Part shown: positions 5,819 to 43,791 of the stretch, in pieces
How positions within the stretch are numbered: position 1 is the first letter of the stretch
How the letters are laid out: every line of letters begins with the position of its first letter
Origin: a virus
Direction: 5' to 3' (one strand)
Length of the DNA stretch: 64,000 nt
IMG/VR virus record: IMGVR_UViG_3300020462_000003
Coordinates: 10,267-74,266 of that record
Notes under the pieces: generated by a model
The model's input: the letters and a program-made list of their open reading frames with translations, nothing else
What the model was told of the DNA's origin: nothing
Database searches by the model: none
Program-made: the position numbers and the translations under genes

Positions 5819-5889
5819 GGTCACTGCATCGGAGCGCAGCACAAGGCGAGCCTGCGAGCCGACAGTGCGGAGGCGACGTTGCAGTGACC
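5819..5889 (+). repeat. long bulged hairpin, copy A of an inverted pair
   Basis: Outer stem ggtcactgca/tgcagtgacc; contains CGCAGCACAAGGCG (5835-5848) and CAGTGCGGAGG (5863-5873). Confidence 0.8.
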
Positions 5890-6019
5890 ATTCATCGGTA
5901 GTGGCAGTAAGCCACCCTACAGTTGATCCAGATCAAGCAGATTCAGTGACCCCGTTCACTAGAATGCGCGCCCTCTGCTGTACGGGACTTTGAATAAGTC
6001 CTTTCGCTTGTACAACTTT

Positions 6020-6100
6020 CCAATCCTCGACTCGAACCTCCGCACTGGCGGCGCACTCGCTGCGCTCGACGCCTTGTGCTGCGTTCGCGCCTCGGATTGG
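6020..6100 (-). repeat. long bulged hairpin, copy B of an inverted pair
   Basis: Outer stem ccaatcc/ggattgg; reverse complements of the same two blocks at 6070-6083 and 6037-6047. Confidence 0.8.
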
Positions 6101-8268: not shown

Positions 8269-10410
8269 ATGCTTCCCGTCAATCAGATGCCGTACCACCC
8301 CACGGCAGAACAACTCGTGCAGATCCTTTGCAACCGTACCCAGAACACGGAGCCGTTATTCTTCCGCGTCCTGGTCGGTTACTACTTCGCCGTAGTGGCC
8401 TCGCAGATGCGCTGCATCATCGGCACACCTGACCGTGGGGATATTCCAGTCAACGTCTATGCGTTGAACCTGTCCCCTTCCGGCACCGGCAAGGGCCACT
8501 CCACCAGCATCATCGAGGACGAGGTGATACATCAGTTCCGCGACCGCTTCCTGGAAGAGACCTTTCCCCTGCTGGCTGATCGTAACCTGCCGGTACTGGC
8601 TAACAAGCGTGCCGTGCGCAAGAACAGCGATCCGGATGAGGAGCTGATCCGTGTGCAGAAGGAATTCGAGCAGCTGGGTTCCCTGCTGTTCAGCTTCGAC
8701 TCTGGTACCAGCCCTGCAGTCAAGCAAATGCGCCACAAGCTGCTGATGGCGGATGCCGGTGCAGTGAACCTGGAGATCGACGAGATCGGTTTGAACCTGG
8801 TGGGCAACACCGAGGTGCTGACTGTGTTCCTTGAGCTATACGACAAGGGCAAGGTCAAGACCAAGCTGGTCAAGTCGACTTCCGACAACTCACGCTTCGA
8901 GGAGATCAAGGGCACCACGCCGACCAACATGATGCTCTTCGGTACACCGTCCAAGCTGTTCGACGGTGCGGCCACTGAGCAGGCTCTGTACTCGATGCTG
9001 GATACCGGCTACGCACGTCGCTGCCTGTTTGGCTATCTCAAAGGTGCCAGCAAGAATCTGGATCTGACTCCGGAGGAGGTCTACGACCTGCAAACCAGCC
9101 AGCAGACCAACCAGTTCCTCGAAGAGCTGGCCGATAAGCTGGAACGCCTGGCCGATATCATCAACGCCAACAAGCGTCTGGTGATGAGCCGGGACACCAG
9201 CCTGGAGCTGATCCAGTACAAGCTGCTGTGTGAGAAGCAGGCCGACGCCATGCCTGAGCACGACGAGATCCGCAAGGCCGAGCTGTCACACCGTTACTTC
9301 AAGGCGCTCAAGCTGGCTGGTGCTTATGCCTTTGTGGACGACTCACCTGAGCTGACCCTGAGCCATCTGCACAACGCTATCCGACTGGTGGAGGACAGTG
9401 GCTTTGCCTTTGGGCAGATGCTCTCGCGTGATCGTCCATACGTGAAGCTAGCCAAGTACCTGGCTTCCATCGGCAAGGAAGTGACTCAGGCTGATCTGGT
9501 TGAAGACCTGCCCTACTACAAGGGGTCTGCTAGCCAGAAGCAGGAGATGCTGACGCTCGCCACGGCCTACGGCTACAAGAACAACATCATCATCAAGAAG
9601 GCGTTCAACGACGGCATCGAGTTCCTGCGTGGCGAAAGCCTCAAGGAAACCGACCTGGACAAGATGGTGGTGAGCTATTCCAGCGATATGACCACCGGCT
9701 ACAACAACGAGACGGCACCGTTCGACAAGCTGCACCTGCTGACTCAGGCCCCAGGCATGCACTGGATCAACCATCACCTCAAGGGTGGTTACCGCAACGA
9801 GGACAACGCTGAACCCGGCTTCAACCTGCTGGTTATCGACGTGGACGGCACCTGCAACCTGAACACAGCCAAGCTGCTGCTCAAGGATTACAAGGCGCTG
9901 TACTACACCACCAAGAGCCACACCGACCAGAACCACCGGTATCGCATCATCCTGCCGACCAACTTCGAGTTGAAGATGGATGCCAAGGACTACAAGGAGT
10001 TCTACAACAACGTCCTGCAGTGGCTGCCATTCGATGCTGATCCCTCTGCTGCCCATCGGTGCAAGAAGTGGCTGACCAAACCCGGTCACTACGAATACAC
10101 CGAAGGCGATGTGTTCGATGTTCTGCCCTTCATTCCGAAGACCAGCAAGAACGAAGAGCGCAAGCAACGATTCGACTCGCAACAGTCGCTAGACAACTTG
10201 GAACGCTGGGTCATCAACAATACCGGCGATGGTAACCGCAACAACATGTTGCTGCGTTACGCCATGATTCTCATGGACGCCAACTTCGACTTCGACGGTA
10301 TCCGCTCTCGCGTGGTGTCGTTGAATGACAAGTTGCCAGACAAGTTGGACGAAGTGGAGATCATGAGTTCCATCATGGTCACGGTCGGCAAAGCACTCTC
10401 CAAGCGGTGA
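8269..10410 (+). CDS. DNA primase/replication protein (N4 gp43-like)
   Basis: Walker A SPSGTGKG; IDVD; YTTKSH...HRYRII; C-terminal GNRNNMLLRYA (PriCT-like). Confidence 0.85.
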   Translation: MLPVNQMPYHPTAEQLVQILCNRTQNTEPLFFRVLVGYYFAVVASQMRCIIGTPDRGDIPVNVYALNLSPSGTGKGHSTSIIEDEVIHQFRDRFLEETFPLLADRNLPVLANKRAVRKNSDPDEELIRVQKEFEQLGSLLFSFDSGTSPAVKQMRHKLLMADAGAVNLEIDEIGLNLVGNTEVLTVFLELYDKGKVKTKLVKSTSDNSRFEEIKGTTPTNMMLFGTPSKLFDGAATEQALYSMLDTGYARRCLFGYLKGASKNLDLTPEEVYDLQTSQQTNQFLEELADKLERLADIINANKRLVMSRDTSLELIQYKLLCEKQADAMPEHDEIRKAELSHRYFKALKLAGAYAFVDDSPELTLSHLHNAIRLVEDSGFAFGQMLSRDRPYVKLAKYLASIGKEVTQADLVEDLPYYKGSASQKQEMLTLATAYGYKNNIIIKKAFNDGIEFLRGESLKETDLDKMVVSYSSDMTTGYNNETAPFDKLHLLTQAPGMHWINHHLKGGYRNEDNAEPGFNLLVIDVDGTCNLNTAKLLLKDYKALYYTTKSHTDQNHRYRIILPTNFELKMDAKDYKEFYNNVLQWLPFDADPSAAHRCKKWLTKPGHYEYTEGDVFDVLPFIPKTSKNEERKQRFDSQQSLDNLERWVINNTGDGNRNNMLLRYAMILMDANFDFDGIRSRVVSLNDKLPDKLDEVEIMSSIMVTVGKALSKR

Positions 10411-13898: not shown

Positions 13899-14099
13899 AT
13901 GAATGCCCTCAAGGGGATGATCTTCGTGCCACTCGCAATCGTCTTCATGGGGGCGTGTTATGTGAGTAGCATGATCATTGGTTGGCTCTTTGCCATCCTG
14001 ACCACAGTGGGGATCGTCATAGTAATCGTTGCAGTTATCCTGCATGGTCTCTATACGTACATCACCCAATCAGGTAAAAAGCCTCCTCGAAAGCAGTGA
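13899..14099 (+). CDS. small membrane protein
   Basis: Two hydrophobic stretches and a basic tail. Confidence 0.65.
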   Translation: MNALKGMIFVPLAIVFMGACYVSSMIIGWLFAILTTVGIVIVIVAVILHGLYTYITQSGKKPPRKQ

Positions 14100-14108
14100 T
14101 GCTTTCAA

Positions 14109-14173
14109 AGAGTGGTGGGGCGTTCGACGCAAGTCGTCACACCTGACAGCCGGGAATAGACCGGCACCCTTCT
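14109..14173 (+). ncRNA. C4-antisense-like small structured RNA (candidate)
   Basis: cgac-GCAA-gtcg hairpin, ctgaca linker, gccgg-gaataga-ccggc hairpin, imperfect closing stem. Confidence 0.45.
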
Positions 14174-14178
14174 CTATC

Positions 14179-14323
14179 GGGGAGTGTTCTGTCCTGCAGT
14201 TGCCACAGCAGGTCGAGGATGAAACCTACGAACCAAGCAGCCCCTGGCGGTGAGCTTTTGCAGCGTTGGAAGAATGAACGGTGGGCTGTTGAAGAGACCA
14301 CACCTCCGGACAGAACATTCCCC
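14179..14323 (+). ncRNA. unknown ~145-nt structured RNA (candidate)
   Basis: 16-bp closing stem ggggagtgttctgtcc/ggacagaacattcccc with one G-U pair; several internal hairpins. Confidence 0.5.
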
Positions 14324-14333
14324 CATACAGAAT

Positions 14334-14357
14334 AAAGCCCTCCGAAGAGGGCTTTTT
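14334..14357. terminator. bidirectional terminator between convergent middle and late units
   Basis: aaagccctc cgaa gagggcttttt. Confidence 0.85.
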
Positions 14358-14359
14358 CA

Positions 14360-17300
14360 TCACTTGATCAGTGAGCTGATCGCCTGGATAGGCAGGGTTT
14401 CATCCCACGCATCCAGCATCTTGAAGGCCCCTATATCCAGTGGGTTGCCAAACTGGTTGACTGCAGCCGAGTCAATCAGTGTCTGAGCACCGTCCAGGTA
14501 GCCATCAAAGGCCAGCAACATCAGTGCCCGAGCAGGGTTCTCTTTCATGAGATCCATGATCACATGCTGGATACGCAGGTAGTACTTGGTGAAGTACACC
14601 AGACCCATCCTGTTCGCATAGTCGAGCAGTTGGTGTGACGGCTTGTCGTAGTTCACGAATGCACGCGACACCTTCAACACTGCATCTTCGTGGCTCAGTG
14701 GATTCTTCTTCCGTGAAATCAGCTGCTGGTACAGGGTGTACCTCGCCACGAAGTCCGACACCTGAGTGCCCTGGCTCAATACGCGGTACAACGCTGTGTC
14801 ATGCGTAACAAAGGCCACCTTCGCAACAGACTTGAGCGCATCCGGCACACGGTCGGCGTGTTGTTCCAAGCTCTTCACCCAACGTGACTTGTACGAGTAG
14901 TCAGAATCGGCAGTGTCCACGTCCTCAACAATGCTCGACAGCAGTCCTGCTTCGATCAGGGAACGTACCGGGCTTTTAGCCAGTGTGTTCTCCAGTCGAA
15001 GAATCTTCTGCTGCATCTCGCGCACATCCCCTACGACAGCACCCGAAGCCAGTTGCGCCTGCAAGGCTGACAGTTCGCTCTCGTCCTTCCGATAGTCCAA
15101 TACCCCCTGCAATGCCACCCAACTGTTCTTGGCAATGTCCACAACAGGCACGCCACTGAGCCACAACTGCGTGTAGTTACTGACCACGTTCCATAGCAGC
15201 GTCATGCCCGTCTTGACCACCAGAATGTCCTTGACCACCCGGATGACCTCCATCCAGCGATCTTCCCCCCGGCGAATCATCAGTGCTGCACGCTTGGCAC
15301 GATCTTCCAGATCCACACCGGTATGCCCTTCACGCTTGAGCTGCCAGCGAACCATCAGGTCCGTCATCTTGAAGAACATGTCTTCAGAGAAGTTACGCTG
15401 AGCCTCGTCCAGCTCCATGATCTTCGACAGACTGTAGGCCGAGTAACCAAACGTCTGGTCGTAAATGTCGTTACGGACCATCAGGTTGTCCGACCCCCAA
15501 ACATCTCTGAGTGCTTGCTTGGAAGCAGGGGGCAATATCCGCCAGGTTTCACGGATCGATGCGTCCTTACTGTCAGGGCCAAAAGTGATATACGCATCCG
15601 GGTTTTTTGTGTACTCCTGATCGTACTGATCCTTCAAGGCTTCAAAGGCTTTGCGGTTCTGCTGAGTCACATTGCTCTTGTCGAAGATGTTCGACTCCAA
15701 CGCACCTAACAGCAGATCAAAGCTGTTGTTGCGCTCCAGCAGTTGATCCTTCATCTGCTCGCTCATCAGGTAGCGATACCCTGCAGCCTCACCCACGGCA
15801 TTGATCACCGGAGCCATGTAGACCTTGCTGTCCTTGCGTGGATCATAATTCGGGTCGATGGGCTGAGCCTGTACAGCACGGGTGATTGCCCGATTGATTC
15901 GCGCCGCATGCTTGTCAACGTACCCGTTACGCGAATACAAAGGCGCATGCACTTCCGTGCCTTTGTGGTGCTGACCGGTATAGGTCACCACACCCGTCTG
16001 GCGATTAGGCAGTCCTCGATCAGTGAGGCGCAGCAGCACCAGATCCTTGAGTACAACGTCGGTATCGTCCTGTTCCAACGGACCTACCACCTCATACCCC
16101 TGAGCCACCATACGCGCTACTTCAGAAGCCGGAGCGGTGATAATCTCGGTGTGTGGGTTGTACACCTCCGGCAAATACCCTTTCATCATCAGCAACTCAC
16201 TGTCTTTGAACAGCTTCTCTGCCGATTCCTTTTGCATGTGACGGTGCAGTTTGAGAATGACCTCGATACCGTTGCCCTTGTCATCCCGTTCAAGCTCTTT
16301 ACGCATCACCTGGGCGGCCTGCATACGTTGGTTGGCATCGGTGTATTCAAGCGCGTAGAGCGAAACCAGTGGATCGAGCACCTTGGCAATCTCACGGCCT
16401 TCTTCCAGGGAGACCTTGGTGCTGTCCGGCGTATTCAGCCGCAAGGCGATACCCAACGCATTCTGCTGAGTGTTGTAGCCCTTGACCTTTACCGCCATCC
16501 GGTAGGCCAGTTGCTTGACGCCCTGGATATATGCGTCCTTGAACGGGCCACTGAGTTGAGCTTCGTACTGAGCTATAGCCTTGTCACGCGCTGCCTTGTC
16601 AGTCATCAGATCCAGCAGACCGGCACTGTCAAAGGGACCTAGCAGCGATTGCATGTCGGTACGCAAAGCCACCTTGGTGACGGCATCCTTCATTCTCTGA
16701 GTGAGGTATTCACCGTTCTCGGCAAAGCTGTCCAGACTCATTTTGGCGAAGTCGGTCTTGATCTTCATCCGCACCGTTTCCAGGAACTTGGTGCTGAGCA
16801 GTAACAGATCCGCCACCTTGTTGCCTTCACGCATCTCGTTGATCACACCGGCCATAAGACCCAGCTTGCCCTGGTACAGACGATCCCGCAGCACTTTGCC
16901 TGCATCTACCAGCTGCCCTACCTGATCATCGACCGAGGCGGCAGCTATGCTGCTGGCAGCACGCACAAAAGCATTCTTGTGCTGATCCAGCATAGGCGAC
17001 TCCAGTACCCTGAGTACCTGTTGCTTGGCCTTGGTACTCACACCGTCCAGGGCGTCTTCCAGTTGCTCACGGGCCGCACCCACAGGACCTGTACGACGGT
17101 TCTGTTTGCGGTACTCCAGGTCCACCAAACGTCGAGCCAGGACACTCAACTTCTCATCGGCCTGTTGACCGCTGTAGACCTTGAACAGGCGATGCTGCAG
17201 TGCATCCAGCAGTTGTTCCCACAGCCACTGGATGCGTTCCCCCAGCTTCATCTGCGACACCTTGCGTGTGTCTTTATCGGTCTCAAAACTCATCTGGTCA

Positions 17301-20300
17301 TGCAACGGCTCCCAGACCATAGCCAGTGCAGCGAACCGAGCCAGGTACTCAGAACCCTGCCCCTTCGAATTAAAGACGTGATCCCACTGCTGGGTATTCA
17401 GGGCAGTACGGATGTTCGGGTTACGACGAGCCTCCTCGTACAGGCGAACCAGCTGCTTGCGTGTGCCTTGAGCTTCGGCACTGTCCAGCGTCTCCTGGAA
17501 GGTCAACTGAGCCAGCTCCAAGGCAAAGGTCTCTTGCTCATTCAGGCCAATGCCTGCTGTAGCGGTATCAGCAGAGAATGGCAGGATGCCGAGCACCTTG
17601 GCTTGCATGATCTGCGCGATTGGGTCAGTGGCCTGAGTGCTTTGCATCTGCGCCTTCAGCACGCCAAAAGGACCCTGCAACCGTGACATGACCCCACTCA
17701 CCAGGGCTTGCAGACGTGCAGTCTGATCCTGGCTCATCGGCTTGTTGGCCTGAGCCAATGAATCGAACACCTGCAAGGTATCCATCGCAGCCTGCGACGT
17801 GGCTCGTTGACGCAGGGTCAGTCCTGCCTGCTGGTTGCGGGTCACCCCGGCTTCGTAGAACAAACCAGAGGTATTGGTGATCAGTGCCGTCAGTGCCGAG
17901 GCTGCCTGTTCTTTCTCGGTCTTGCTCGATCCATTGAAGAGAATGCCCACCACCGAATCGATGAACTTACGCATCGCCTTGATCAATCCGTTCGGGCCTT
18001 TACGCTGGCTCTCGAAGGTCATCTTGTTCAGCACATCACGCTGAAAGCCCTGGTTGGTCATGCCCCAGGAAATCAACTCATGGACGTTCTCGATGGCCGG
18101 TGCGTAGTTCTGCTGCAGCTGGGCATCCTTGGCAATAAACGCTTCGGCCTGCACACGCAGCAGTTCCAGATCATCAATCAGATCCAGGGCTTCACTCTCA
18201 TGCTCTGGATTGGCTGTGCGTGCAGCCAGTTCTGCTTCGATGGTCTGAGCCAAGGCACCGTGTACCAGCTCATGCAGCACCAGTTCAGGCGTCAGGTTGC
18301 CTACCTGAGAATCGGTGCTACGCAGGTAAATGGTCGGCGTGCCTCCCTCAGTGGTGAACCAGCCCAGCGAGTTGTCTACATCTTCGCCCTTCAGCTCACT
18401 CTTCGGCGTGTTCGGGGTGACGTAGCGGATCTCCAGTCCAGCATCAACCGTGTTGGCCAACATCTTCAACAGCTTGCGGTTGAGGTTCTGTACCCGTCCT
18501 GCAGGCGTGGCCAGCAGTGCCTGTTCAACCAGACCAAAGACTTCCTTGGCTGGCATCACCGGCTTGGCTTTCAGGGCTGCTTCCAGGGGAGACAGCTCTT
18601 GTGTGTCGTCTTCTTCGACGACCTCTTCCTGAGCCTCTGCGGCCTTGCCGGGTTGCATCCCTTTCGCCTTTTCAGCCAGCAGCTCAGCAGCGGCCTGTAC
18701 CTCGGCAGACAACACCGGCTGCAGGGTTTTGAGTTTGGCCTCGATGGCTTCACGATCCTTATCGGTTACCCGGTACACCCCTTTCTCCAGGGTGTACTGA
18801 TCCAGGGTATCCACTTCCATCAACAGGTTGAGTTTGGCCTGGTCAGCGGCGTAGGCACCATACTTGGCTGCATCCAGTACATGCGGAATCAGCCTATCGA
18901 AAGGCACACCTTCCACATCCTTATCGAACGCCTTCTCTATCTGAACGTGGATCTGTCGCAACGCATCCATGTCGAAGGCATCACCTTCGGTCTCGATACG
19001 TTCAGCCAACGCCAGTACGGTACGTTCCAGAGCCTGGTAGGTCTGTTCGGGAATGGAGTAGTTCAGCAACGCCTCGAAGGTGTGTTTGTTCAGGCTGTTG
19101 GCACCCTTGACCATATCTTTGAGTGCCAGCCCCAGAGCGTCATGCACGTTCAAGGCTTCGACCTGTGCGTAGCTGCTCATGGCAATGAAGCTATCCGTAC
19201 TCTGTACGCTTTTAGCCATACCACTGACGCCAGGGTCCTTCATCATTTCGGTCATGGCACGCACCTGCATGCGCGGACGACCATTGAAGGCAATCTGCGA
19301 GGAGTAGCGTGGATCACTGTTCAAGTGTCGCTCGGACTGGGTAGCGAAGACTGCGCCTTCTGTACTGCCTGTCTGAGAGCTGGCCGTATGCAGGCGAGGC
19401 TCGAAGGCTTTCACCCGCTCACGTAACACCTTGGTCTGCTCTGCCGTCAGGTCATGCAGCGGAACACGCACTTCATCCTTATTGCGCTTGAAGGCCATCA
19501 GCCCTGCATCCATCAGCTCCTCTTCGTAGCGGCCACGTTCCAGTGCGTACATCTGGTCGTAGATGGCATACGCCGCCTGCAACGTGTTGTTGATCTGGGT
19601 ACGTGCCGCCATGAAGTCGCCAAGGTTCTCTTGCAGAGATACACGGGTGGCCTTGCCCAGCGAAACCTGGAAAGCACCCTTGAACAGGCTGGCTTGCTTG
19701 TCGGAGAACTCCCACTCCATCCCCTGCTCCAGGGTCATGGTTTCAGGGAGCAGCTGTGATTCCAGGAAGTACTTCTGCTTGCTGCTCATCTTCTTGCCCT
19801 TGGACATGCCCAGGGTCAGCAGCGCATTGATATCCCGAACAATCTGCTCCATCGAGTCAGGGGTCTTGTTCTTCTTGGCAGCCAAGGACTCCATTCGCGC
19901 ATAGACCCGATCCAGGGTCTCTTCCGCCATGGCATCCAGTGCGGTGAACACCGATGAGCCGTACATCAGCCCCGTCAAAGGGGTCTTGACCAGGTTACGC
20001 GCATCCTTGCTCACCGAGCCGTCTTCTGCCCGCAGTACGCCAGTAAACCGGTACAGGGCATCGATACCCCCTAGGCCTATGCTGTAGTCGCGATCAGACC
20101 ATTCTTTAGTGATCTCCTGCATGGAGAACGTCATGTCACTGGCCAGAGTCTGGTACAGGTCAAGATTGCCCAAGGCCTTCCAGGCACCAAAGCCCTTCTC
20201 GTCCATCGACTTCAGCATGAAGCCCCCTTTGGGAGCCAGGTTCTGCGTCATGGCACCGAGCAACCACAGGCTCAGCATCGGGCCGTTGGTCTTGCCGTCC

Positions 20301-23300
20301 ACCTCACCCATCATGTGGGAAGTGAATACCTGCTTACCGGACTCCTTGGCTTGCAGGTAATCGGCCAGACCCAGCAAGGCATCGAAGCTGTGCATCTTCT
20401 CCTTGCCCTTGAGTACACCTGCCAGGATGGCTTCCTGACTTTCAGGCGTTACCGTCTCATTCCAGATTAGGTCACGGATGGCCTGAGCAGCCGCCCGATA
20501 AGTAGGATCGTTCTCGATCGATTCCCACTTGGCCAGGGTGGCTTCGTCACTTTGCTCGTCGGACTTGATGCCCAGGCCTTCCATTACCCGCAGCTGGAAG
20601 TTGATCAGCGATGTGTCGCCTGCACCCTTGCCCATGGATACGTTGGATACCCAACCACCCATGCGGGTGACGAAGCGATGCACCTTACTGGTCTGAGGGT
20701 TGATGCCGTTTTCCTTGAGCATCACACGCTGGTTATTGGACGTGGTAGGCGTCAGATGAAACGGTACATCCAGGGACGCATCGAGCTTGGAGATCTGCTG
20801 GAAGAACTCCATCAGGTGAGCAATCTCACGACGCAGGCCATCGTTCTTCGCTTCCTGGCTCTTGCGGTGAGCCTTGTGAACCTTCGTCTCGTCTACCAAC
20901 ACCACACCTGCGACCTGCTCGAAGACCTCCGGATTGAGTAGGGTCACCACCTGCATGGAATCCGCACGCAGGTAACTGGTTCGCTTGGCGACCTTTTTCA
21001 GGATCTTCCATTGCAGGTCAGGAGTTTTCTGCAGTCCTTTTACATGCGTCTCCGGACGCATCTTCGGTGCGGTGAGTGCGGGAAATTGCACAGCCGACTC
21101 CACCCCGAAGACCTTGTTGAAGGCGCCTTCTGTCTGACGGGCCGACTCAACAATCGACTGAGCTTGCTGGTTCAACTCACCATTTTTCGTAACCAGTCGA
21201 ATGAAGACGTGGTTGCCTGCGTTGTACTCTCGCTTGTCACGGGAAGCATCAACGACAGCTTTATCGGAGACAGTGGATGCTTCAACAATACCCTGCTCTT
21301 CCAGCATGGCCAGCGTGTGAGCACCCAAGGCGATGCGCAGCCGATCATGGCTGTCACTAGGCGCATCTTTCTTCAGACGCAGCCCAAGCGCCTGTATAGC
21401 CATGTCACCCAGTCGATTAACCACCAGGTTACGGGTGGTGCCTACATCCGAGAGCAGGCGCATCAATGCAGGTGGGACAGCCAGATCCTGTTTACGCCCG
21501 ATCTTGGCATTGACGGCTTCTTCGTTATCCAGACGGGGCTTGCCGGAGGCTTCCAGAATCCAGCCATAGGCCGATACCGACAGGGCCGTGGCAATGTTCT
21601 CTTCCAGGTTCAGGTCATCGTCGTGCAGGAACTGCATGAAGTCGTAGGCGAAGGATTCGGTAAGGATCTTTCCTTCCTTGTTCTTCATGCGCTTGAGCTG
21701 GCCCTGAAGAGTGTCCTGCCAGGCTTCGGCTGCAACCACGAAGCGGTTCAGCAAACCATGCTGCTCATCGGTCAGGTCACTGTCGATGAACGACTGGAAC
21801 TTCGCCTTCCCAGACTTGATCTTGCTCATGAAGTCGGTGACCGAAGTCAGTGGCTTCTTGGCATGACGCACCTGCTCGAAGTCTTCGGCAACACGGTTCT
21901 GTGTGAGGTAGTTGGCTGCTTCAAAGGGTTTGCCCGAGGCTTCGGCAAACAGCTTCAGACGCCCATCCACCACCGCCTCTTCAAATAGATCCGGCTGAAC
22001 ATCGTCCTGCTTGTCTGCCAACCCTTCCATCCACTGCAGGATGCCTGCTGCTTCTTCAGCAGCCAGATCCTGATCGGCGGCCAGCTCATCGATCTTGGCG
22101 TCCATGCGTTGCACGAACTCAGGGGAAGCCAGTCGAGCAATACGCGCACGCACAGGGGCAAAGGCTTCACGGATACTGTTCTCGTTGAACATGTCCGTGT
22201 AGAGGTTTTCAGCCGCAGTCTCGCCGTCGTCATCCAGCTCCTGCGGATTGGCATCCAGTAGCTTCTGGCCTTCAAGCAGACGCTCACGCGCATCCAAGTC
22301 GCTGACACGAGCAGCCTGCTCTACGAAATTGGCAGGCACATTTGCTTCAACTTCCTCGGCTACAGATGCAGGGTCCTGAACAGGTTCACTGGTTGGTTGG
22401 GGAATCTCTTGAGGGGCTTCCGCCACCGTAGCTTGAGCAGGTTCGGCAACCGGCTTGGCGATCTCCTGCCGGGGAGTTTCTGCCACAGTTACAGGCTCAG
22501 TCGGTGCAACAACAGCGGGAGCCTGCTTTACTGACGAGGTACGCAGCTTGTACAGCGACTTCATCTCATTCAGCAGCGACTTCAGTGCAGCCGCTTCCTT
22601 ACGGACTTCGTTGATACGGCCTGCCGATGCACGGGTGACTGTGAATCCACCGGCCTCTTTCATAGCCTTCATGCTCAAGGGTTGCGTGACGGGTCCCCAG
22701 TTACCTTCGGCATCCGGCACCACCTGCACACTGCCACCCTTCTTCTGGATGGCATCCAAGGCACTCTTCAGTGCGGTCACCTTCTTGATGTGACTCGCCG
22801 CAAAGTTCTGCAGATCCTTGATCTCTCGACGGGCCGTCACTTCATCCGGTGTAGTGGCGTTCAGGGCAGAAGTGATCCAGGAACGGTACTGCTTCATTCC
22901 CTTGTTCTTGTCCGAACCCAGACGGATCTCGTCGCTCACGGCACCGAAGTCCTTGAGCTGGTTTTCCGCTACACGACTGGCTGACAGGAATCGCAGATGC
23001 TTACGCTGTGCGTCATCCAGTTTGATGGACGGCGAATTAATCAGGTAATCCAGGGTGCTATCGGTCAGCGCCTCAGGGTTACGCATGGACAAGGTGAACG
23101 ACTCGGCAACCGCTTTCTCCAGCACAGTCGGTTCAACAGTATCGGGTGTTTCGATGGCTTGTTTGATAGTGGCCTGAGCGGTCTCAGCTACCTTGCCGGT
23201 TACACGCTGCTCGAACTTACGGGCCGTCTCCAACTGGGTTTCCAGCGTCTCGACCGCAGTCTTGGCACGCTTACGAGAATCTGCATCCGAACGCACGGCA

Positions 23301-25108
23301 ACACGCTTCTCCAGAGCGGTGATGTACTGGGTGTACTCAGCCACCGTTTCCGTGTCAGCAGGGTCTACGGCCGCCAGTTCGGTCTTGCGCTGATCCAGCT
23401 CTGCCTGCATCTCCTGCACCCGTTCAGGGGCGTACTCAGCCAGCGTCGCCTTCTTCTTGTCCAGGGATGCCTGCATATCCCCGACCAGGGATACCAGTTC
23501 CTGACTCTTGGCTTCCTTTTGTTCTGGAGCCAGATCAGCCTTCTCGATGTGACGCATCAGTGCCCGAGCACCCAGCACGGGGTTGTAGGTAGCCGACTCA
23601 GGGTTGACCAGCGCCTCTACGTCACCTGTTTCAGCCGCCTTGTCTGCTGCTTTCTGGGCGTCGTCGTAGCGGGCCAAGGCTTCTTTCTGCTCACGGCTGG
23701 CACCGCCCATGACCGAACCCATGGCAGTACCGGTGACCAGACCCATGGCAGCCGCATTACCTACACCTTCATCGTAGGGACGGTCCAACGCCAGGTTCTG
23801 CAGCACCTGCTCGCCTGAGGATTGGACAGCTTCCTCACCCCCCTCCAGACCTGCAGCGCCTACTGTGCGGGGCACTACCGGTTTGGTGGATGTGCCCAGT
23901 GCGCCTTTAACCAGAGCTTCATCCACGTCACCCAAGCCTGCCTTGTTGGCCAGGCCACCACTGAGACGATTGACCAGCGAACCCATGACGCCTGTACCAC
24001 CGGCAGCAGCAGTCTGCTTGAGTGACAGCAAGCCATCAGCGGTCTGCTGACGGATACCCTCAGCTGCACTGCCTGCCATGACCAGGCCTTCGCCTGCTGC
24101 AGCTGCTACCTTGCTGCCTGCACCTAAGGCCTGCAAACCACGGCCAAACAAACCACCTGCCAGCATGGAGGGGATGGATTCACCCACAGCATGAGGAACA
24201 ACACTGGGGTTGGCTGCGATCTCTTCCATCGTGTCCCAGAAGCCTTCGGCCTGACCGACGTTTTCGTCGGCATACCGCTGTTCCCAAGTCTTCAGGGTGT
24301 CGAGGAATTCACGAGCCTCCTCAGGACGGAAACCGGCTTCTTCGAGCGTCTTGCCTGCATGGCCACCCGACACAATGTCAGCCAGACCCACGGCCATCTC
24401 GGGAACGCTCACAGCACCCTTGACCGCAGTGACAGTACCGTCCTGCGTGGCACGGCGCATCAGACTATTGGTTCGCTCTTCCGTCTCCCCCATACCGGCC
24501 AGCGAATCCCAGTTGGATAGCTGATCGATCTTCTCGGAGAAGCCCCGAGCCTTCAGGGCACGTTCCAGTCGATCCAGGTTAGCGGCACCTTCCCTCGCTG
24601 GCATCTGGGCAGACCCGAACGTCATCTCACGCTGGGACAGCAGATCCATATCGGCATCGGTAGCCTGGTTGGTGCGGTAACGGCCATAGGCTTCTTTGGC
24701 AGCAGCATCCACCGAGGCTTCCTCGGCAAAGGCGTACGCATCCAACGGAGCCTGCAGGACATTACCCCCCAGAGCAGCGGCATCCTTGGCGAAGGACGCC
24801 AACTGGTTGATCACCATGCCTGGATATCCCTCATGATCCAGACCCAACTTACTCACAACACTGTTGGCGTTGGCTTCATCAATGCGACCTTGCCGTTCAC
24901 GAAACCGACGATTACCGTCGATGATCGATGCCGTACGGGTAGCCTCACGCGCTGCCAATGAATTAGGTATCGGCTCCTGGTCCTTCAGCGCACCCAGTAC
25001 TTGACGCTTTAATTCAGTTGCTTGCGCCAGCTTTTCCTTTTTAAGTTCGGTCAAGGAGATAGAGCGTAGTTCTTCTGGGAGTTCTGGAAGTTCTGGGAGC
25101 TGAGCCAT
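14360..25108 (-). CDS. virion-encapsidated RNA polymerase (N4 gp50-like vRNAP)
   Basis: 3582 aa; T7-like motifs EVDGKTNG, RNLVKTPLTGLMYGS, NVHDA; apparently Cys-free. Confidence 0.95.
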   Translation of the reverse strand: MAQLPELPELPEELRSISLTELKKEKLAQATELKRQVLGALKDQEPIPNSLAAREATRTASIIDGNRRFRERQGRIDEANANSVVSKLGLDHEGYPGMVINQLASFAKDAAALGGNVLQAPLDAYAFAEEASVDAAAKEAYGRYRTNQATDADMDLLSQREMTFGSAQMPAREGAANLDRLERALKARGFSEKIDQLSNWDSLAGMGETEERTNSLMRRATQDGTVTAVKGAVSVPEMAVGLADIVSGGHAGKTLEEAGFRPEEAREFLDTLKTWEQRYADENVGQAEGFWDTMEEIAANPSVVPHAVGESIPSMLAGGLFGRGLQALGAGSKVAAAAGEGLVMAGSAAEGIRQQTADGLLSLKQTAAAGGTGVMGSLVNRLSGGLANKAGLGDVDEALVKGALGTSTKPVVPRTVGAAGLEGGEEAVQSSGEQVLQNLALDRPYDEGVGNAAAMGLVTGTAMGSVMGGASREQKEALARYDDAQKAADKAAETGDVEALVNPESATYNPVLGARALMRHIEKADLAPEQKEAKSQELVSLVGDMQASLDKKKATLAEYAPERVQEMQAELDQRKTELAAVDPADTETVAEYTQYITALEKRVAVRSDADSRKRAKTAVETLETQLETARKFEQRVTGKVAETAQATIKQAIETPDTVEPTVLEKAVAESFTLSMRNPEALTDSTLDYLINSPSIKLDDAQRKHLRFLSASRVAENQLKDFGAVSDEIRLGSDKNKGMKQYRSWITSALNATTPDEVTARREIKDLQNFAASHIKKVTALKSALDAIQKKGGSVQVVPDAEGNWGPVTQPLSMKAMKEAGGFTVTRASAGRINEVRKEAAALKSLLNEMKSLYKLRTSSVKQAPAVVAPTEPVTVAETPRQEIAKPVAEPAQATVAEAPQEIPQPTSEPVQDPASVAEEVEANVPANFVEQAARVSDLDARERLLEGQKLLDANPQELDDDGETAAENLYTDMFNENSIREAFAPVRARIARLASPEFVQRMDAKIDELAADQDLAAEEAAGILQWMEGLADKQDDVQPDLFEEAVVDGRLKLFAEASGKPFEAANYLTQNRVAEDFEQVRHAKKPLTSVTDFMSKIKSGKAKFQSFIDSDLTDEQHGLLNRFVVAAEAWQDTLQGQLKRMKNKEGKILTESFAYDFMQFLHDDDLNLEENIATALSVSAYGWILEASGKPRLDNEEAVNAKIGRKQDLAVPPALMRLLSDVGTTRNLVVNRLGDMAIQALGLRLKKDAPSDSHDRLRIALGAHTLAMLEEQGIVEASTVSDKAVVDASRDKREYNAGNHVFIRLVTKNGELNQQAQSIVESARQTEGAFNKVFGVESAVQFPALTAPKMRPETHVKGLQKTPDLQWKILKKVAKRTSYLRADSMQVVTLLNPEVFEQVAGVVLVDETKVHKAHRKSQEAKNDGLRREIAHLMEFFQQISKLDASLDVPFHLTPTTSNNQRVMLKENGINPQTSKVHRFVTRMGGWVSNVSMGKGAGDTSLINFQLRVMEGLGIKSDEQSDEATLAKWESIENDPTYRAAAQAIRDLIWNETVTPESQEAILAGVLKGKEKMHSFDALLGLADYLQAKESGKQVFTSHMMGEVDGKTNGPMLSLWLLGAMTQNLAPKGGFMLKSMDEKGFGAWKALGNLDLYQTLASDMTFSMQEITKEWSDRDYSIGLGGIDALYRFTGVLRAEDGSVSKDARNLVKTPLTGLMYGSSVFTALDAMAEETLDRVYARMESLAAKKNKTPDSMEQIVRDINALLTLGMSKGKKMSSKQKYFLESQLLPETMTLEQGMEWEFSDKQASLFKGAFQVSLGKATRVSLQENLGDFMAARTQINNTLQAAYAIYDQMYALERGRYEEELMDAGLMAFKRNKDEVRVPLHDLTAEQTKVLRERVKAFEPRLHTASSQTGSTEGAVFATQSERHLNSDPRYSSQIAFNGRPRMQVRAMTEMMKDPGVSGMAKSVQSTDSFIAMSSYAQVEALNVHDALGLALKDMVKGANSLNKHTFEALLNYSIPEQTYQALERTVLALAERIETEGDAFDMDALRQIHVQIEKAFDKDVEGVPFDRLIPHVLDAAKYGAYAADQAKLNLLMEVDTLDQYTLEKGVYRVTDKDREAIEAKLKTLQPVLSAEVQAAAELLAEKAKGMQPGKAAEAQEEVVEEDDTQELSPLEAALKAKPVMPAKEVFGLVEQALLATPAGRVQNLNRKLLKMLANTVDAGLEIRYVTPNTPKSELKGEDVDNSLGWFTTEGGTPTIYLRSTDSQVGNLTPELVLHELVHGALAQTIEAELAARTANPEHESEALDLIDDLELLRVQAEAFIAKDAQLQQNYAPAIENVHELISWGMTNQGFQRDVLNKMTFESQRKGPNGLIKAMRKFIDSVVGILFNGSSKTEKEQAASALTALITNTSGLFYEAGVTRNQQAGLTLRQRATSQAAMDTLQVFDSLAQANKPMSQDQTARLQALVSGVMSRLQGPFGVLKAQMQSTQATDPIAQIMQAKVLGILPFSADTATAGIGLNEQETFALELAQLTFQETLDSAEAQGTRKQLVRLYEEARRNPNIRTALNTQQWDHVFNSKGQGSEYLARFAALAMVWEPLHDQMSFETDKDTRKVSQMKLGERIQWLWEQLLDALQHRLFKVYSGQQADEKLSVLARRLVDLEYRKQNRRTGPVGAAREQLEDALDGVSTKAKQQVLRVLESPMLDQHKNAFVRAASSIAAASVDDQVGQLVDAGKVLRDRLYQGKLGLMAGVINEMREGNKVADLLLLSTKFLETVRMKIKTDFAKMSLDSFAENGEYLTQRMKDAVTKVALRTDMQSLLGPFDSAGLLDLMTDKAARDKAIAQYEAQLSGPFKDAYIQGVKQLAYRMAVKVKGYNTQQNALGIALRLNTPDSTKVSLEEGREIAKVLDPLVSLYALEYTDANQRMQAAQVMRKELERDDKGNGIEVILKLHRHMQKESAEKLFKDSELLMMKGYLPEVYNPHTEIITAPASEVARMVAQGYEVVGPLEQDDTDVVLKDLVLLRLTDRGLPNRQTGVVTYTGQHHKGTEVHAPLYSRNGYVDKHAARINRAITRAVQAQPIDPNYDPRKDSKVYMAPVINAVGEAAGYRYLMSEQMKDQLLERNNSFDLLLGALESNIFDKSNVTQQNRKAFEALKDQYDQEYTKNPDAYITFGPDSKDASIRETWRILPPASKQALRDVWGSDNLMVRNDIYDQTFGYSAYSLSKIMELDEAQRNFSEDMFFKMTDLMVRWQLKREGHTGVDLEDRAKRAALMIRRGEDRWMEVIRVVKDILVVKTGMTLLWNVVSNYTQLWLSGVPVVDIAKNSWVALQGVLDYRKDESELSALQAQLASGAVVGDVREMQQKILRLENTLAKSPVRSLIEAGLLSSIVEDVDTADSDYSYKSRWVKSLEQHADRVPDALKSVAKVAFVTHDTALYRVLSQGTQVSDFVARYTLYQQLISRKKNPLSHEDAVLKVSRAFVNYDKPSHQLLDYANRMGLVYFTKYYLRIQHVIMDLMKENPARALMLLAFDGYLDGAQTLIDSAAVNQFGNPLDIGAFKMLDAWDETLPIQAISSLIK

Positions 25109-42675: not shown

Positions 42676-42987
42676 ATGACCACCCTCGAAAAGCTGCAAA
42701 TGCACCTGATCAGCCCTGCCATTCACCAGCACTTGCCGGGACACTTCCATAAGGAAGTTGCTGCGTCTGTGCGTTGTGCTGACGGCACCACAATGTCGGT
42801 GCAAGCCAGTGAGCACGCTTACTGCTCACCGCGTACCAACTTCGGTCCTTATACCCAAGTGGAGGTCTGGCGCTGTGGTGAGGTGCCTGCATGGGCTGAA
42901 TACGGCGATGGTGAAGAACCGTATGCCTACCTTCCCATTGAATTGGTAGTGGAAGAAATAGACCGTCGAGGCGGTTTCGCAAATTGA
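42676..42987 (+). CDS. conserved phage hypothetical protein
   Basis: CADGTTMSVQAS..YCSPR...VEV...YAYLP...RGG; SD aaggag. Confidence 0.7.
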   Translation: MTTLEKLQMHLISPAIHQHLPGHFHKEVAASVRCADGTTMSVQASEHAYCSPRTNFGPYTQVEVWRCGEVPAWAEYGDGEEPYAYLPIELVVEEIDRRGGFAN

Positions 42988-43030
42988 CCAGAAGCCCCGA
43001 TTCAAGGGCTTCGTTGTATCTGGAGTAACC

Positions 43031-43528: not shown

Positions 43529-43791
43529 GCGTCCAGTACCTGTGCCTGAAGCGTGGCGTGCTTCAGCACCACATTGAGCCAGATGAGGATTGGCTGGAAT
43601 TCCCTTCTCGTTACCTCAAGGCCAACCCTCATGCCGCTGTATATCGCAAGCGGCATACAGGTGGACAGTACCTGCGATATGCCTATGACAAGGCCAAACG
43701 TCACCCACGCCAAATGCGTTCGACCGTGATGGAACGTCACGAGCTACCGCCTGAAGTACAGGCAGCCATGCTGCTGCTTGATATCAAATAA
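43525..43791 (+). CDS. early hypothetical protein (shared C-terminal motif)
   Basis: GTGA overlap; ends ELPPEVQAAMLLLDIK. Confidence 0.65.
   Translation: MSVQYLCLKRGVLQHHIEPDEDWLEFPSRYLKANPHAAVYRKRHTGGQYLRYAYDKAKRHPRQMRSTVMERHELPPEVQAAMLLLDIK

Follow-up and report, generated by a model that had tools for sequence, protein, structure and literature searches.

A conserved closing stem with a replaceable loop at the end of the replication/recombination operon of an N4-like phage

Introduction

The N4-like phages are a large and widespread family, and some of them are used in therapy. To our knowledge, the RNA biology of these phages beyond their three polymerases is almost unknown. The present work concerns an inverted repeat and the sequence enclosed by it at positions 14179-14323 of a 64,000-nucleotide (nt) stretch of viral DNA, which is referred to as the window. 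The window covers positions 10,267-74,266 of the IMG/VR record IMGVR_UViG_3300020462_000003 (74,266 bp in total). The phage is regarded as N4-like because it carries a gene for a virion RNA polymerase (vRNAP) of 3582 amino acids (aa). The working part of the element appears to be one long-range RNA helix and not a multi-stem RNA. As a phage RNA motif the element is unclassified; its replaceable loop is unusual, and the motif is related to a published but uncharacterised small-RNA locus.

This locus has been described in the Pseudomonas phage LUZ7. Heavy late transcription was observed for the space that separates orf69 from orf70, which gives rise to many RNAs shorter than 250 nt and to three small-RNA candidates (Putzeys et al. 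2022, PMC9163698, section 3.2.4, Fig. 8). One abundant LUZ7 small RNA lacks its own start site and was interpreted as a processing product (PMC9163698). The middle transcripts of LUZ7 and LIT1 are reported to run antisense into the late genes (PMC9163698, section 3.2.4). No follow-up work on the LUZ7 small RNAs was found in the literature. The stem described here lies at 42936-43004 of the LUZ7 sequence FN422398, inside the orf69-orf70 space taken as a whole. The only block that LIT1 and LUZ7 share within this space is 42901-43018, with 83.5% identity. In the record of phage PEV2 (KU948710), the region 43577-43738 (L116:69-230), which adjoins the stem on its 5′ side, carries the remark "Very strongly transcriptionally expressed". 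It is annotated as gp67.1, a GTG-started open reading frame (ORF) of 53 aa. Since this ORF covers the hairpins located just 5′ of the stem, gp67.1 is more likely to be a non-coding RNA than a gene.

The locus of the LUZ7 small RNAs (sRNA1-3) and of PEV2 gp67.1 belongs to the same phage family and the same operon as the element in the window, is non-coding, and is likewise located within about 1 kb of the convergent vRNAP gene. The same stem motif is found (GGGAGUGCUCUGG / CCAGAGCACUCC versus GGGGAGUGUUCUG / CAGAACAUUCCCC), with a similar CACCCUU(U)CU motif nearby, and the sequence CACCCUUUCUAGAU upstream in LUZ7 resembles a linker of the window. In LUZ7 and LIT1, however, the enclosed sequence is 46 nt long and shows conservation across two genera, and a ribosome-binding site and three further genes come after the stem; in the window the enclosed sequence is replaceable and 113 nt long, and a terminator comes after the stem.

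Several other systems share features with the element. The hairpins processed by RNase III, such as the T7 R-sites, lambda sib and the stems flanking rRNA, are also irregular duplexes of about two turns in a transcribed spacer or 3′ trailer. The content of their loop is irrelevant to recognition, and they can stabilise the upstream mRNA or release the enclosed sequence. Unlike these hairpins, which occur at many sites per genome, the stem of the window is present at one site, and its sequence is more conserved than a generic site needs. The Correia elements of Neisseria and the ERIC elements have a comparable length of about 100-150 nt, conserved inverted ends and a variable core, and they are co-transcribed with genes as long RNA hairpins affecting processing and stability. 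They are multi-copy and chromosomal, and Correia elements have target duplications; the element in the window is single-copy, phage-borne and without such duplications. Y RNAs and vault RNAs share with the element the paired 5′ and 3′ ends, a partly sequence-conserved stem with a bulged base and a variable middle, but no Rfam match was obtained for the element.

Stable RNAs are also known from phage tRNA clusters, for example the species 1 and 2 RNAs of T4. In phage Littlefix the genomic position corresponding to the element is occupied by three tRNA genes and a spacer closed by a long stem, whereas the window has no tRNA-like fold. The three Littlefix tRNAs, one of which has an insert of about 60 nt, were recognised by Rfam in an un-annotated gap between gp10 and the vRNAP gene (MG775260, L003:3962-4647), where ARAGORN calls only a tRNA-Arg(TCT). 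The spacer of about 110 nt with its long closing stem contains the string CUGAUGAG and matches no ribozyme family.

Results

The closing stem is under selection

In the initial annotation of the window, positions 14179-14323 were described as a multi-stem RNA of about 145 nt, closed by a 16-bp stem and directly followed by a bidirectional terminator that faces the vRNAP gene. Both the stem and the terminator were found as described. Base pairing between the arms GGGGAGTGTTCTGTCC (14179-14194) and GGACAGAACATTCCCC (14308-14323) covers 16 bp, the single G-U pair among these becomes A-C on the minus strand, and the terminator is present at 14334-14357. No inverted repeat in the 64-kb window is stronger than this one, which can be lengthened to 25 nt at 88% (14170-14194 / 14308-14332). 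The second strongest signal of this kind is given by the nested inverted repeats at 5832-6086 taken together (17 nt at 94%, 5832-5848 / 6070-6086; 25 nt at 80%, 5849-5873 / 6037-6061). The stem occurs once in the window and once in the whole 74-kb genome; a putative second copy at genome position 9462-9572, a weak model match, was rejected, as its fold is no better than that of shuffled sequences.

The folding energy of the 145-nt stretch is -60.6 kcal/mol (z -3.6), and z reaches -4.8 when the flanks and the terminator are included. The stem, termed P4, consists of the 16 bp and an outer helix of 8 bp with two 1x1 C-C mismatches (14178/14324 and 14174/14328), in total about 24 bp. The 5′ strand of the outer helix, 14170-14177, pairs with its 3′ strand, 14325-14332, in every fold of six homologues. 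RNase III substrates are expected to be irregular duplexes of about 20 bp or more, and the duplex of the window is of this length. The corresponding duplexes have 20 bp without mismatches in locus L015 and 23 bp in locus L100.

Selection on the stem was assessed in an alignment of its core from 10 sequences (A4), with controls in which the partner was slid by 1-3 columns and with 500 shuffles. The conserved core comprises 13 bp and corresponds to the 16 bp of the window. Within it 93.8% of the cells are paired, compared with 39-51% in the slid controls. Double-sided, compensatory changes were detected in 5 of the 13 core pairs, a number reached by none of the 500 shuffles, and one core pair is found as C-G, A-U and U-A. 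Six of the 13 pairs never vary, and these are interleaved with the covarying ones. The invariance of core pairs spans phages whose vRNAP C-terminal regions are only about 40% identical. In L008/L010, LUZ7, LIT1, L099 and L100 there is a recurrent bulged A immediately 3′ of CUCC. Thus, the covariation among homologues that the initial annotation had asked for is present for the closing stem, and the closing stem is under selection.

The strand on which selection acts was judged from wobble pairs and from orientation. In the core, six cells are G-U or U-G on the operon strand (about four independent events), versus one internal A-C. Further sense-strand G-U pairs occur in an inner LIT1 hairpin and, by our own reading, one in the outer helix of L015. 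The arm GGGAGUG is located 5′ relative to the direction of the flanking genes in the clade of the window, in L015, in LUZ7/LIT1 and in L099, that is, in all contexts with a clear direction. The plus-strand RNA is therefore suggested as the selected form, with moderate confidence only, because the wobble and orientation events are few. The arm bears a partial likeness to the T7 class II stop signal ATCTGTT and to boxA.

The enclosed loop is replaced between close relatives

The initial annotation had further placed four small hairpins inside the closing stem. They are seen in the minimum-energy fold of the window. The interior as a whole, however, folds at the level of its dinucleotide shuffles (z +0.68 in the window; -0.67, +1.47, -0.10, +0.09, -1.13 and -1.65 in six homologues), and the hairpins are not conserved in the relatives. 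Four types of interior, with lengths of 119, 90, 64 and 50 nt, were found in the clade, and they are mutually unrelated in either orientation. Since the interiors fold like shuffles and are swapped among relatives, the four hairpins are regarded as chance-level features of a single loop type, designated type A. Conservation is limited to the closing helix, and the hairpins enclosed by it are replaced wholesale between near-identical genomes; a defined multi-stem RNA of about 145 nt is thus not supported.

The replacement is most evident in loci L008, L009 and L077. Their flanks are 95-100% identical for more than 1 kb on each side of the stem, yet the interiors are unrelated, and the arms differ by about 23% according to our own count on the aligned arms. 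Loops of the same type are identical, with 119/119 positions between the window and L093 and 90/90 positions in the second case. The window and L093 share 94-100% identity in the surrounding trailer, 60-80% in the adjacent 66-aa gene and 50-65% in the vRNAP genes. The type A interior was not found elsewhere in the loci, the window or the phage collection, and its complementarity to the rest of the genome is not above chance. A blastn search of the element against the phage collection returned terminator look-alikes only. In a wastewater run, contigs of relatives join position 14192 to 14311 or 14318, and none shows 80% or more likeness over the interior, which is consistent with further loop types. 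Runs X7 and X8 contain relatives at 85-95% identity on short contigs, with no likeness of 80% or more on the interior, which is taken only as consistent with other loop types. An invertible DNA segment (inverton) was considered and rejected: the interiors are unrelated in both orientations, and no strand-switch joints occur in the runs examined.

Mosaic exchange was also observed elsewhere in the same operon. A segment of about 550 bp upstream of the trailer of L008 (L008:4800-5400) has only 31-51% identity to L009, L010 and L077, that is, it is unrelated to them, while its flank toward the trailer is 78-100% identical to these loci; it appears as a gene-sized swap.

The element does not belong to a recognised RNA class. 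No Rfam match falls within 14076-14333 even at E<=10, and weak matches are found on the terminator only. ARAGORN detects no tRNA or tmRNA gene in the window, in agreement with the initial annotation, and a ribozyme or tRNA-like interior was rejected. The homologous elements of L008, L009, L077, L015, LUZ7 and LIT1 have no Rfam match either, and among eight homologous loci ARAGORN reports no tRNA or tmRNA; only Littlefix has one, the tRNA-Arg. GGA motifs of the CsrA/RsmA type, counted by eye, number 5 per 287 nt, which is the chance expectation. Two ORFs do cover the element, one of 38 aa on the plus strand (14219-14335) and one of 50 aa on the minus strand (14326-14174). Neither is conserved, and the minus-strand frame ends after 7 codons in L008, by our own reading of the aligned relatives. 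ORFs over the element have no match in PHROG.

Occurrence of the stem in other phages

A search with the C-terminus of the vRNAP identified one close relative in ENA, P0002, with 93% identity; the next match is below 48%, and the identity to cultured phages is at most 39%. The vRNAP C-terminus alone found no relative in IMG/VR or the JGI metagenomes, and the exact 16-mer of the arm has no match in IMG/VR. An alignment of vRNAP C-termini (A1) gave 80 IMG/VR loci. When the region 14100-14360 was compared with these loci by nhmmer and blastn, four matches were obtained, L008, L010, L009 and L077. L008 and L010 have an 11-bp stem, GAAGTGATCTG/CAGATCACTTC, before the vRNAP terminator, and in L009 and L077 the trailer combines a CUCGU/ACGAG domain with a 13-bp stem. 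With a 19-mer taken from the conserved region, L093 was added from the JGI metagenomes, where five of the seven matches of this 19-mer were dismissed as chance.

A scan with the arm motif revealed near-identical perfect stems in LUZ7, LIT1, KPP21, YH30, YH6 and one uncultured relative, and a related stem in L015. The shared motif GGGAGUG-N-UCUG ... CAGA-N-CACUCCC is also present in PEV2. A pattern scan of IMG/VR added L099 and L100, and the arm motif is common to L015, LUZ7, LIT1, L068, L099, L100 and L114. The window has the core helix with compensatory variation and scores 136 bits with the model built from all members; it also shares the context, being non-coding, sense to a replication/recombination operon and near the convergent vRNAP gene. 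The model built from the clade only, applied to 148 kb, detects LIT1 (E 0.0066), L099 (0.007), L100 (0.067) and LUZ7 (0.1). On these comparisons the stem is likely to be homologous between the clade of the window and LUZ7/LIT1. In 78 other N4-like loci, the all-member model detected nothing in addition to L015 and the LUZ7/LIT1 group.

At least one contig with the stem motif, L099, is not N4-like. It carries CI-like repressor, Erf-like and RecE-like genes, and the stem is sense to those genes. L099 thereby combines the stem motif with a gene of temperate type, the CI-like repressor. The sequence GCATCGG is located just 5′ of the core in L099 and L100, the window equivalent being CTATCGG. No informative PHROG match was obtained for the neighbours of L114 or L100. 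Among 185,579 species genomes, 8 matches were detected. One of them, in a Marinobacter metagenome-assembled genome (MAG), also shares the C-rich tail of LIT1; about half of the 8, or all of the remaining ones, are probably chance. Several candidates were set aside: the matches in L063 and L069 are located within a membrane-protein gene, and those in L097, L102, L108, L109, L111 and L112 match on one strand only and were taken as chance. L110, L113 and L115 have long perfect stems without further support.

A marine metatranscriptome (runs X1-X4, one sample) contains a phage contig of 33.9 kb at a depth of about 143, identical to the window over the 2.5 kb compared. The RNA library is dated five years after the probable source sample. 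The presence of the contig may reflect active infection or carry-over of DNA.

Genetic context of the stem

The vRNAP gene (14360..25108 on the minus strand in the ORF list) is convergent with the operon carrying the stem. Pfam PF21894 and PF21867 were matched on a protein identical to the vRNAP of the window, and its homologues are N4-like vRNAPs. The plus-strand replication/recombination (middle) operon runs toward this gene and encodes Sak4-like, N4-type SSB, Gam-like and RuvC-like resolvase proteins, a 127-aa protein and a 66-aa hydrophobic protein. The last of these has no PHROG match. By eye, it is similar to LUZ7 orf72 and LIT1 orf70, with which it shares its size, an xLK at the N-terminus and an SW(V/I)FRILG-like core; BLASTP did not report this match. 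If this likeness holds, the stem follows that gene in the window and precedes orf70-72 in LUZ7, so that the synteny is loose.

According to alignments A2 and A3, the stem is the distal portion of a conserved non-coding trailer of about 285 nt (14076-14362) of the replication/recombination operon. The order of its parts from 5′ to 3′ is P1, P2, a 45-nt insertion in L009 and L077 only, P3, the C/U-rich linker, P4, a second linker and the terminator (Table 1). The stop codon of the 66-aa gene, UGA or UAA, is located in the P1 loop, GUGA or GUAA, in 6/6 clade members. Among 6 sequences, one pair of P1 shows a double change from A-U to G-C, and another is A-U, G-U or G-C. P1 also resembles an intrinsic terminator on the minus strand (14112-14083); late transcripts leaking past the shared terminator would thus copy the trailer in antisense and halt at P1. 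One pair of P2 is broken in 3 of the 6 sequences, and its inner helix is broken in L010. The P2 stretch has no Rfam match to C4 antisense RNA at E<=10. The invariance of the P3 stem means that conservation neither supports nor opposes its pairing. Since P1-P3 and the terminator are almost invariant, they hold little covariation information, the only double change being that in P1. The terminator scores on both strands and serves both the middle operon on the plus strand and the vRNAP gene on the minus strand.

The 45-nt insertion, CGTCCGGAAAGCTCGTGTCAGTTGGACGTTAAGCTACAGACGAGA, is located immediately 3′ of P2 in 2 of the 6 trailers (L009:4113-4157 and the equivalent place in L077, minus strand). 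It is able to form hairpins of its own and marks a second indel hot spot in the same trailer. The 30 nt at 14142-14171, comprising P3 and its flanks, are 96.7% identical to part of a "hypothetical protein" gene of the Stenotrophomonas phages BUCT708 and BUCT709 (E 6e-3), which is probably chance.

Table 1. Coordinates of the trailer features and of the preceding gene in the window
Feature	Position	Strand	Basis or conservation
Last operon gene, 66-aa hydrophobic protein	13899..14099	+	ORF list
P1 hairpin, GAAAGCA-GUGA-UGCUUUC	14089..14106	+	7/7 pairs kept in 6 sequences
P2 hairpin, GGUGGG...CACACC, inner helix GCGU/ACGC	14114..14143	+	nearly invariant
P3 hairpin, GCCGG-GAAUAGA-CCGGC	14149..14165	+	stem invariant, 6/6 clade members
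C/U-rich linker, ACCCUUCUCUAUC	14166..14178	+	invariant in A3
5′ arm of closing stem P4, core GGGAGUG-N-UCUG	14179..14194	+	inverted repeat, covariation
Variable interior (P4 loop), type A, with four small hairpins	14195..14307	+	
3′ arm of closing stem P4	14308..14323	+	inverted repeat, covariation
3′ linker, CAUACAGAAU	14324..14333	+	conserved; CAUACAGAAG in most relatives, CAUAUAGAAG in L093
Bidirectional intrinsic terminator, AAAGCCCUC-CGAA-GAGGGCUUUUU	14334..14357	both	nearly invariant, six homologues

Discussion

We tentatively propose, with a probability of about 0.4, that the stem is a cis-acting double-stranded RNA hairpin for processing or stability, which yields small RNAs derived from the 3′ trailer and tolerates the replacement of its loop. 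On transcription of the operon, pairing of the two arms would leave 45-119 nt of weakly constrained sequence as a loop. In cis, the duplex would act as a processing and stability module, cut by a nuclease of the RNase III type, or forming a barrier to 3′ exonucleases, or both. The 3′ end of the operon mRNA would thereby be set just before the shared terminator, and stable small RNA fragments would be left. RNA as the selected form, cleavage or protection by the duplex, and small RNAs in this phage are what we infer from the comparisons above.

The selected helix, the preference for the sense strand and the matches of the clade-only model described above favour this proposal. The loop is also dispensable both as sequence and as fold, as seen from the shuffle-like interiors and the four unrelated types. 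The duplex is of a length that suits a double-strand RNase in the window, L015 and L100, and RNase III-type processing of the irregular duplex of about 24 bp is plausible. Expression has been reported in relatives, with the small RNAs of LUZ7 (PMC9163698) and the remark in the PEV2 record. The suggestion of the initial annotation that the element is a structured non-coding RNA thus survives as a selected structure that fits plus-strand RNA, while the multi-stem fold does not.

Several observations weigh against the proposed processing hairpin. The link to LUZ7 is a short motif with modest E-values, and the LUZ7 core and outer helix together amount to only about 17 bp. The wobble-strand argument depends on few independent events, about 5-6 versus 2. 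The marine metatranscriptome has the region only as one contig, possibly due to DNA carry-over, which carries no information on ends, strand or expression. The 6 invariant core pairs and the recurrent bulged A point to sequence-specific recognition, beyond the needs of a generic double-strand RNase. The identity of the type A loop at 119/119 positions, despite a 66-aa gene that is only 60-80% identical, suggests constraint on the loop or transfer of the unit. Replacement of whole loops between flanks of 95-100% identity also exceeds neutral drift. The partial sequence invariance of the stem, its bulged A and the cassette-like loop are three misfits to a generic RNase III site, and they keep a protein-binding non-coding RNA alive as an explanation.

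According to that explanation, which is possible if doubtful, the element is a trans-acting or protein-binding small RNA. The stem with its bulged A would be a platform for a phage or host protein. The loop would be a swappable cassette that confers specificity and is subject to diversifying selection; in conflicts between phage and host or between phages it could serve, for example, as a decoy, a sponge or an antisense determinant. The interleaving of invariant with covarying pairs and the recurrence of the bulged A 3′ of CUCC agree with such a platform. So do the discrete loop types: loops of one type are identical, and those of different types are unrelated, on backgrounds of 95-100% identity. 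Two genera in the Pseudomonas clade have a conserved interior, in which changes keep the structure and a C-rich stretch is unpaired, and abundant small RNAs derive from the LUZ7 locus (PMC9163698). On the other hand, the loops are not more structured than their shuffles, the type A loop lacks above-chance complementarity to the rest of the genome, no partner protein co-occurs beside the stem in all contexts, and no Rfam family is similar. The specific combination of a conserved protein-binding handle with an exchangeable specificity cassette is unlikely. If true, it would be an RNA counterpart of the hypervariable immunity and anti-defence loci, with a polymorphism kept by conflict with hosts or rival phages and a unit moved between near-identical genomes.

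The stem might instead act at the DNA level, as a hairpin or cruciform in single-stranded or supercoiled DNA with a function in replication or recombination, such as that of a priming or loading site or of a target for a resolvase. Its centre would be unstable through the cutting and repair of hairpin centres, and a hypervariable centre is what is expected of a palindrome. The position of the stem, which closes an operon carrying Sak4-like, SSB, Gam-like and RuvC-like genes and in L099 is found just upstream of Erf-like and RecE-like genes, is in line with such a role, as is the conservation of both arms as sequence. Template switching in quasi-palindromes can, moreover, give paired changes without selection on RNA. 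The wobble pairs, however, favour one strand, and the orientation of the arms relative to transcription is constant. In addition, the arms are 45-119 bp apart, which makes a large loop for cruciform extrusion, and the LUZ7 locus is a hot spot of RNA (PMC9163698). We therefore consider a role in DNA improbable.

It is still less probable that the stem is a selfish or modular palindrome of the miniature inverted-repeat transposable element (MITE), Correia or ERIC type, which spreads by recombination or transposition and is tolerated in transcribed spacers. The conserved terminal inverted repeats with a variable core are reminiscent of such elements. The synteny is not strict either: the stem is located after the orf72-like gene in the window, a match made by eye, and upstream of orf70-72 in LUZ7, and it is also present in the non-N4-like contig with CI-like repressor and Erf/RecE-like genes and in the Marinobacter MAG. 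A spreading element is nevertheless hard to reconcile with one copy per genome, with no target-site duplication at the stem ends in the window, L099 and L100, with no associated transposase, and with just 8 matches in the species genomes, about half of them probably chance.

Very unlikely is a regulated stop between convergent operons, in which the trailer with its stem would determine the extent to which middle transcripts pass the shared terminator into the antisense strand of the late genes; it might also halt late transcripts that leak past this terminator. In the window the stem stands directly before the bidirectional terminator, and with the terminator-like P1 late transcripts meet a stop at either end of the trailer. 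By our own inspection, pairing may be possible between the invariant linker CCCUUCUC and the 3′ half of the terminator, GAAGAGGG; this alternative pairing is without covariation because both partners are invariant. The middle transcripts of LUZ7 and LIT1 are reported to run antisense into late genes (PMC9163698). In LUZ7, LIT1 and L099, however, the stem is not beside a convergent junction, and a ribosome-binding site and genes come next.

Finally, a chance inverted repeat or a small protein gene is hardly credible. For the former, we roughly estimate an expectation of about 0.03 repeats of 16 bp within 200 nt in 64 kb of sequence; for the latter, the overlapping 38-aa (plus) and 50-aa (minus) ORFs would be the candidates. 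Against these readings stand the covariation across 10 sequences, the lack of conservation of these ORFs, interior length differences that are not multiples of three and the absence of a PHROG match.

Conclusions

A conserved fold should not be assumed when the multi-stem interior is modelled. Wholesale replacement of a loop is unusual for a structured RNA, and it makes this locus either a hot spot of recombination or repair at a hairpin or a locus under diversifying selection. When the LUZ7 hot spot was published in 2022, no structure, family or function was assigned to it. The covarying helix links it to uncultured marine and wastewater phages and to at least one contig that is not N4-like. 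The stem is thus a concrete target that can be mutated in experiments, with P. aeruginosa as a tractable host for LUZ7, LIT1 or PEV2.

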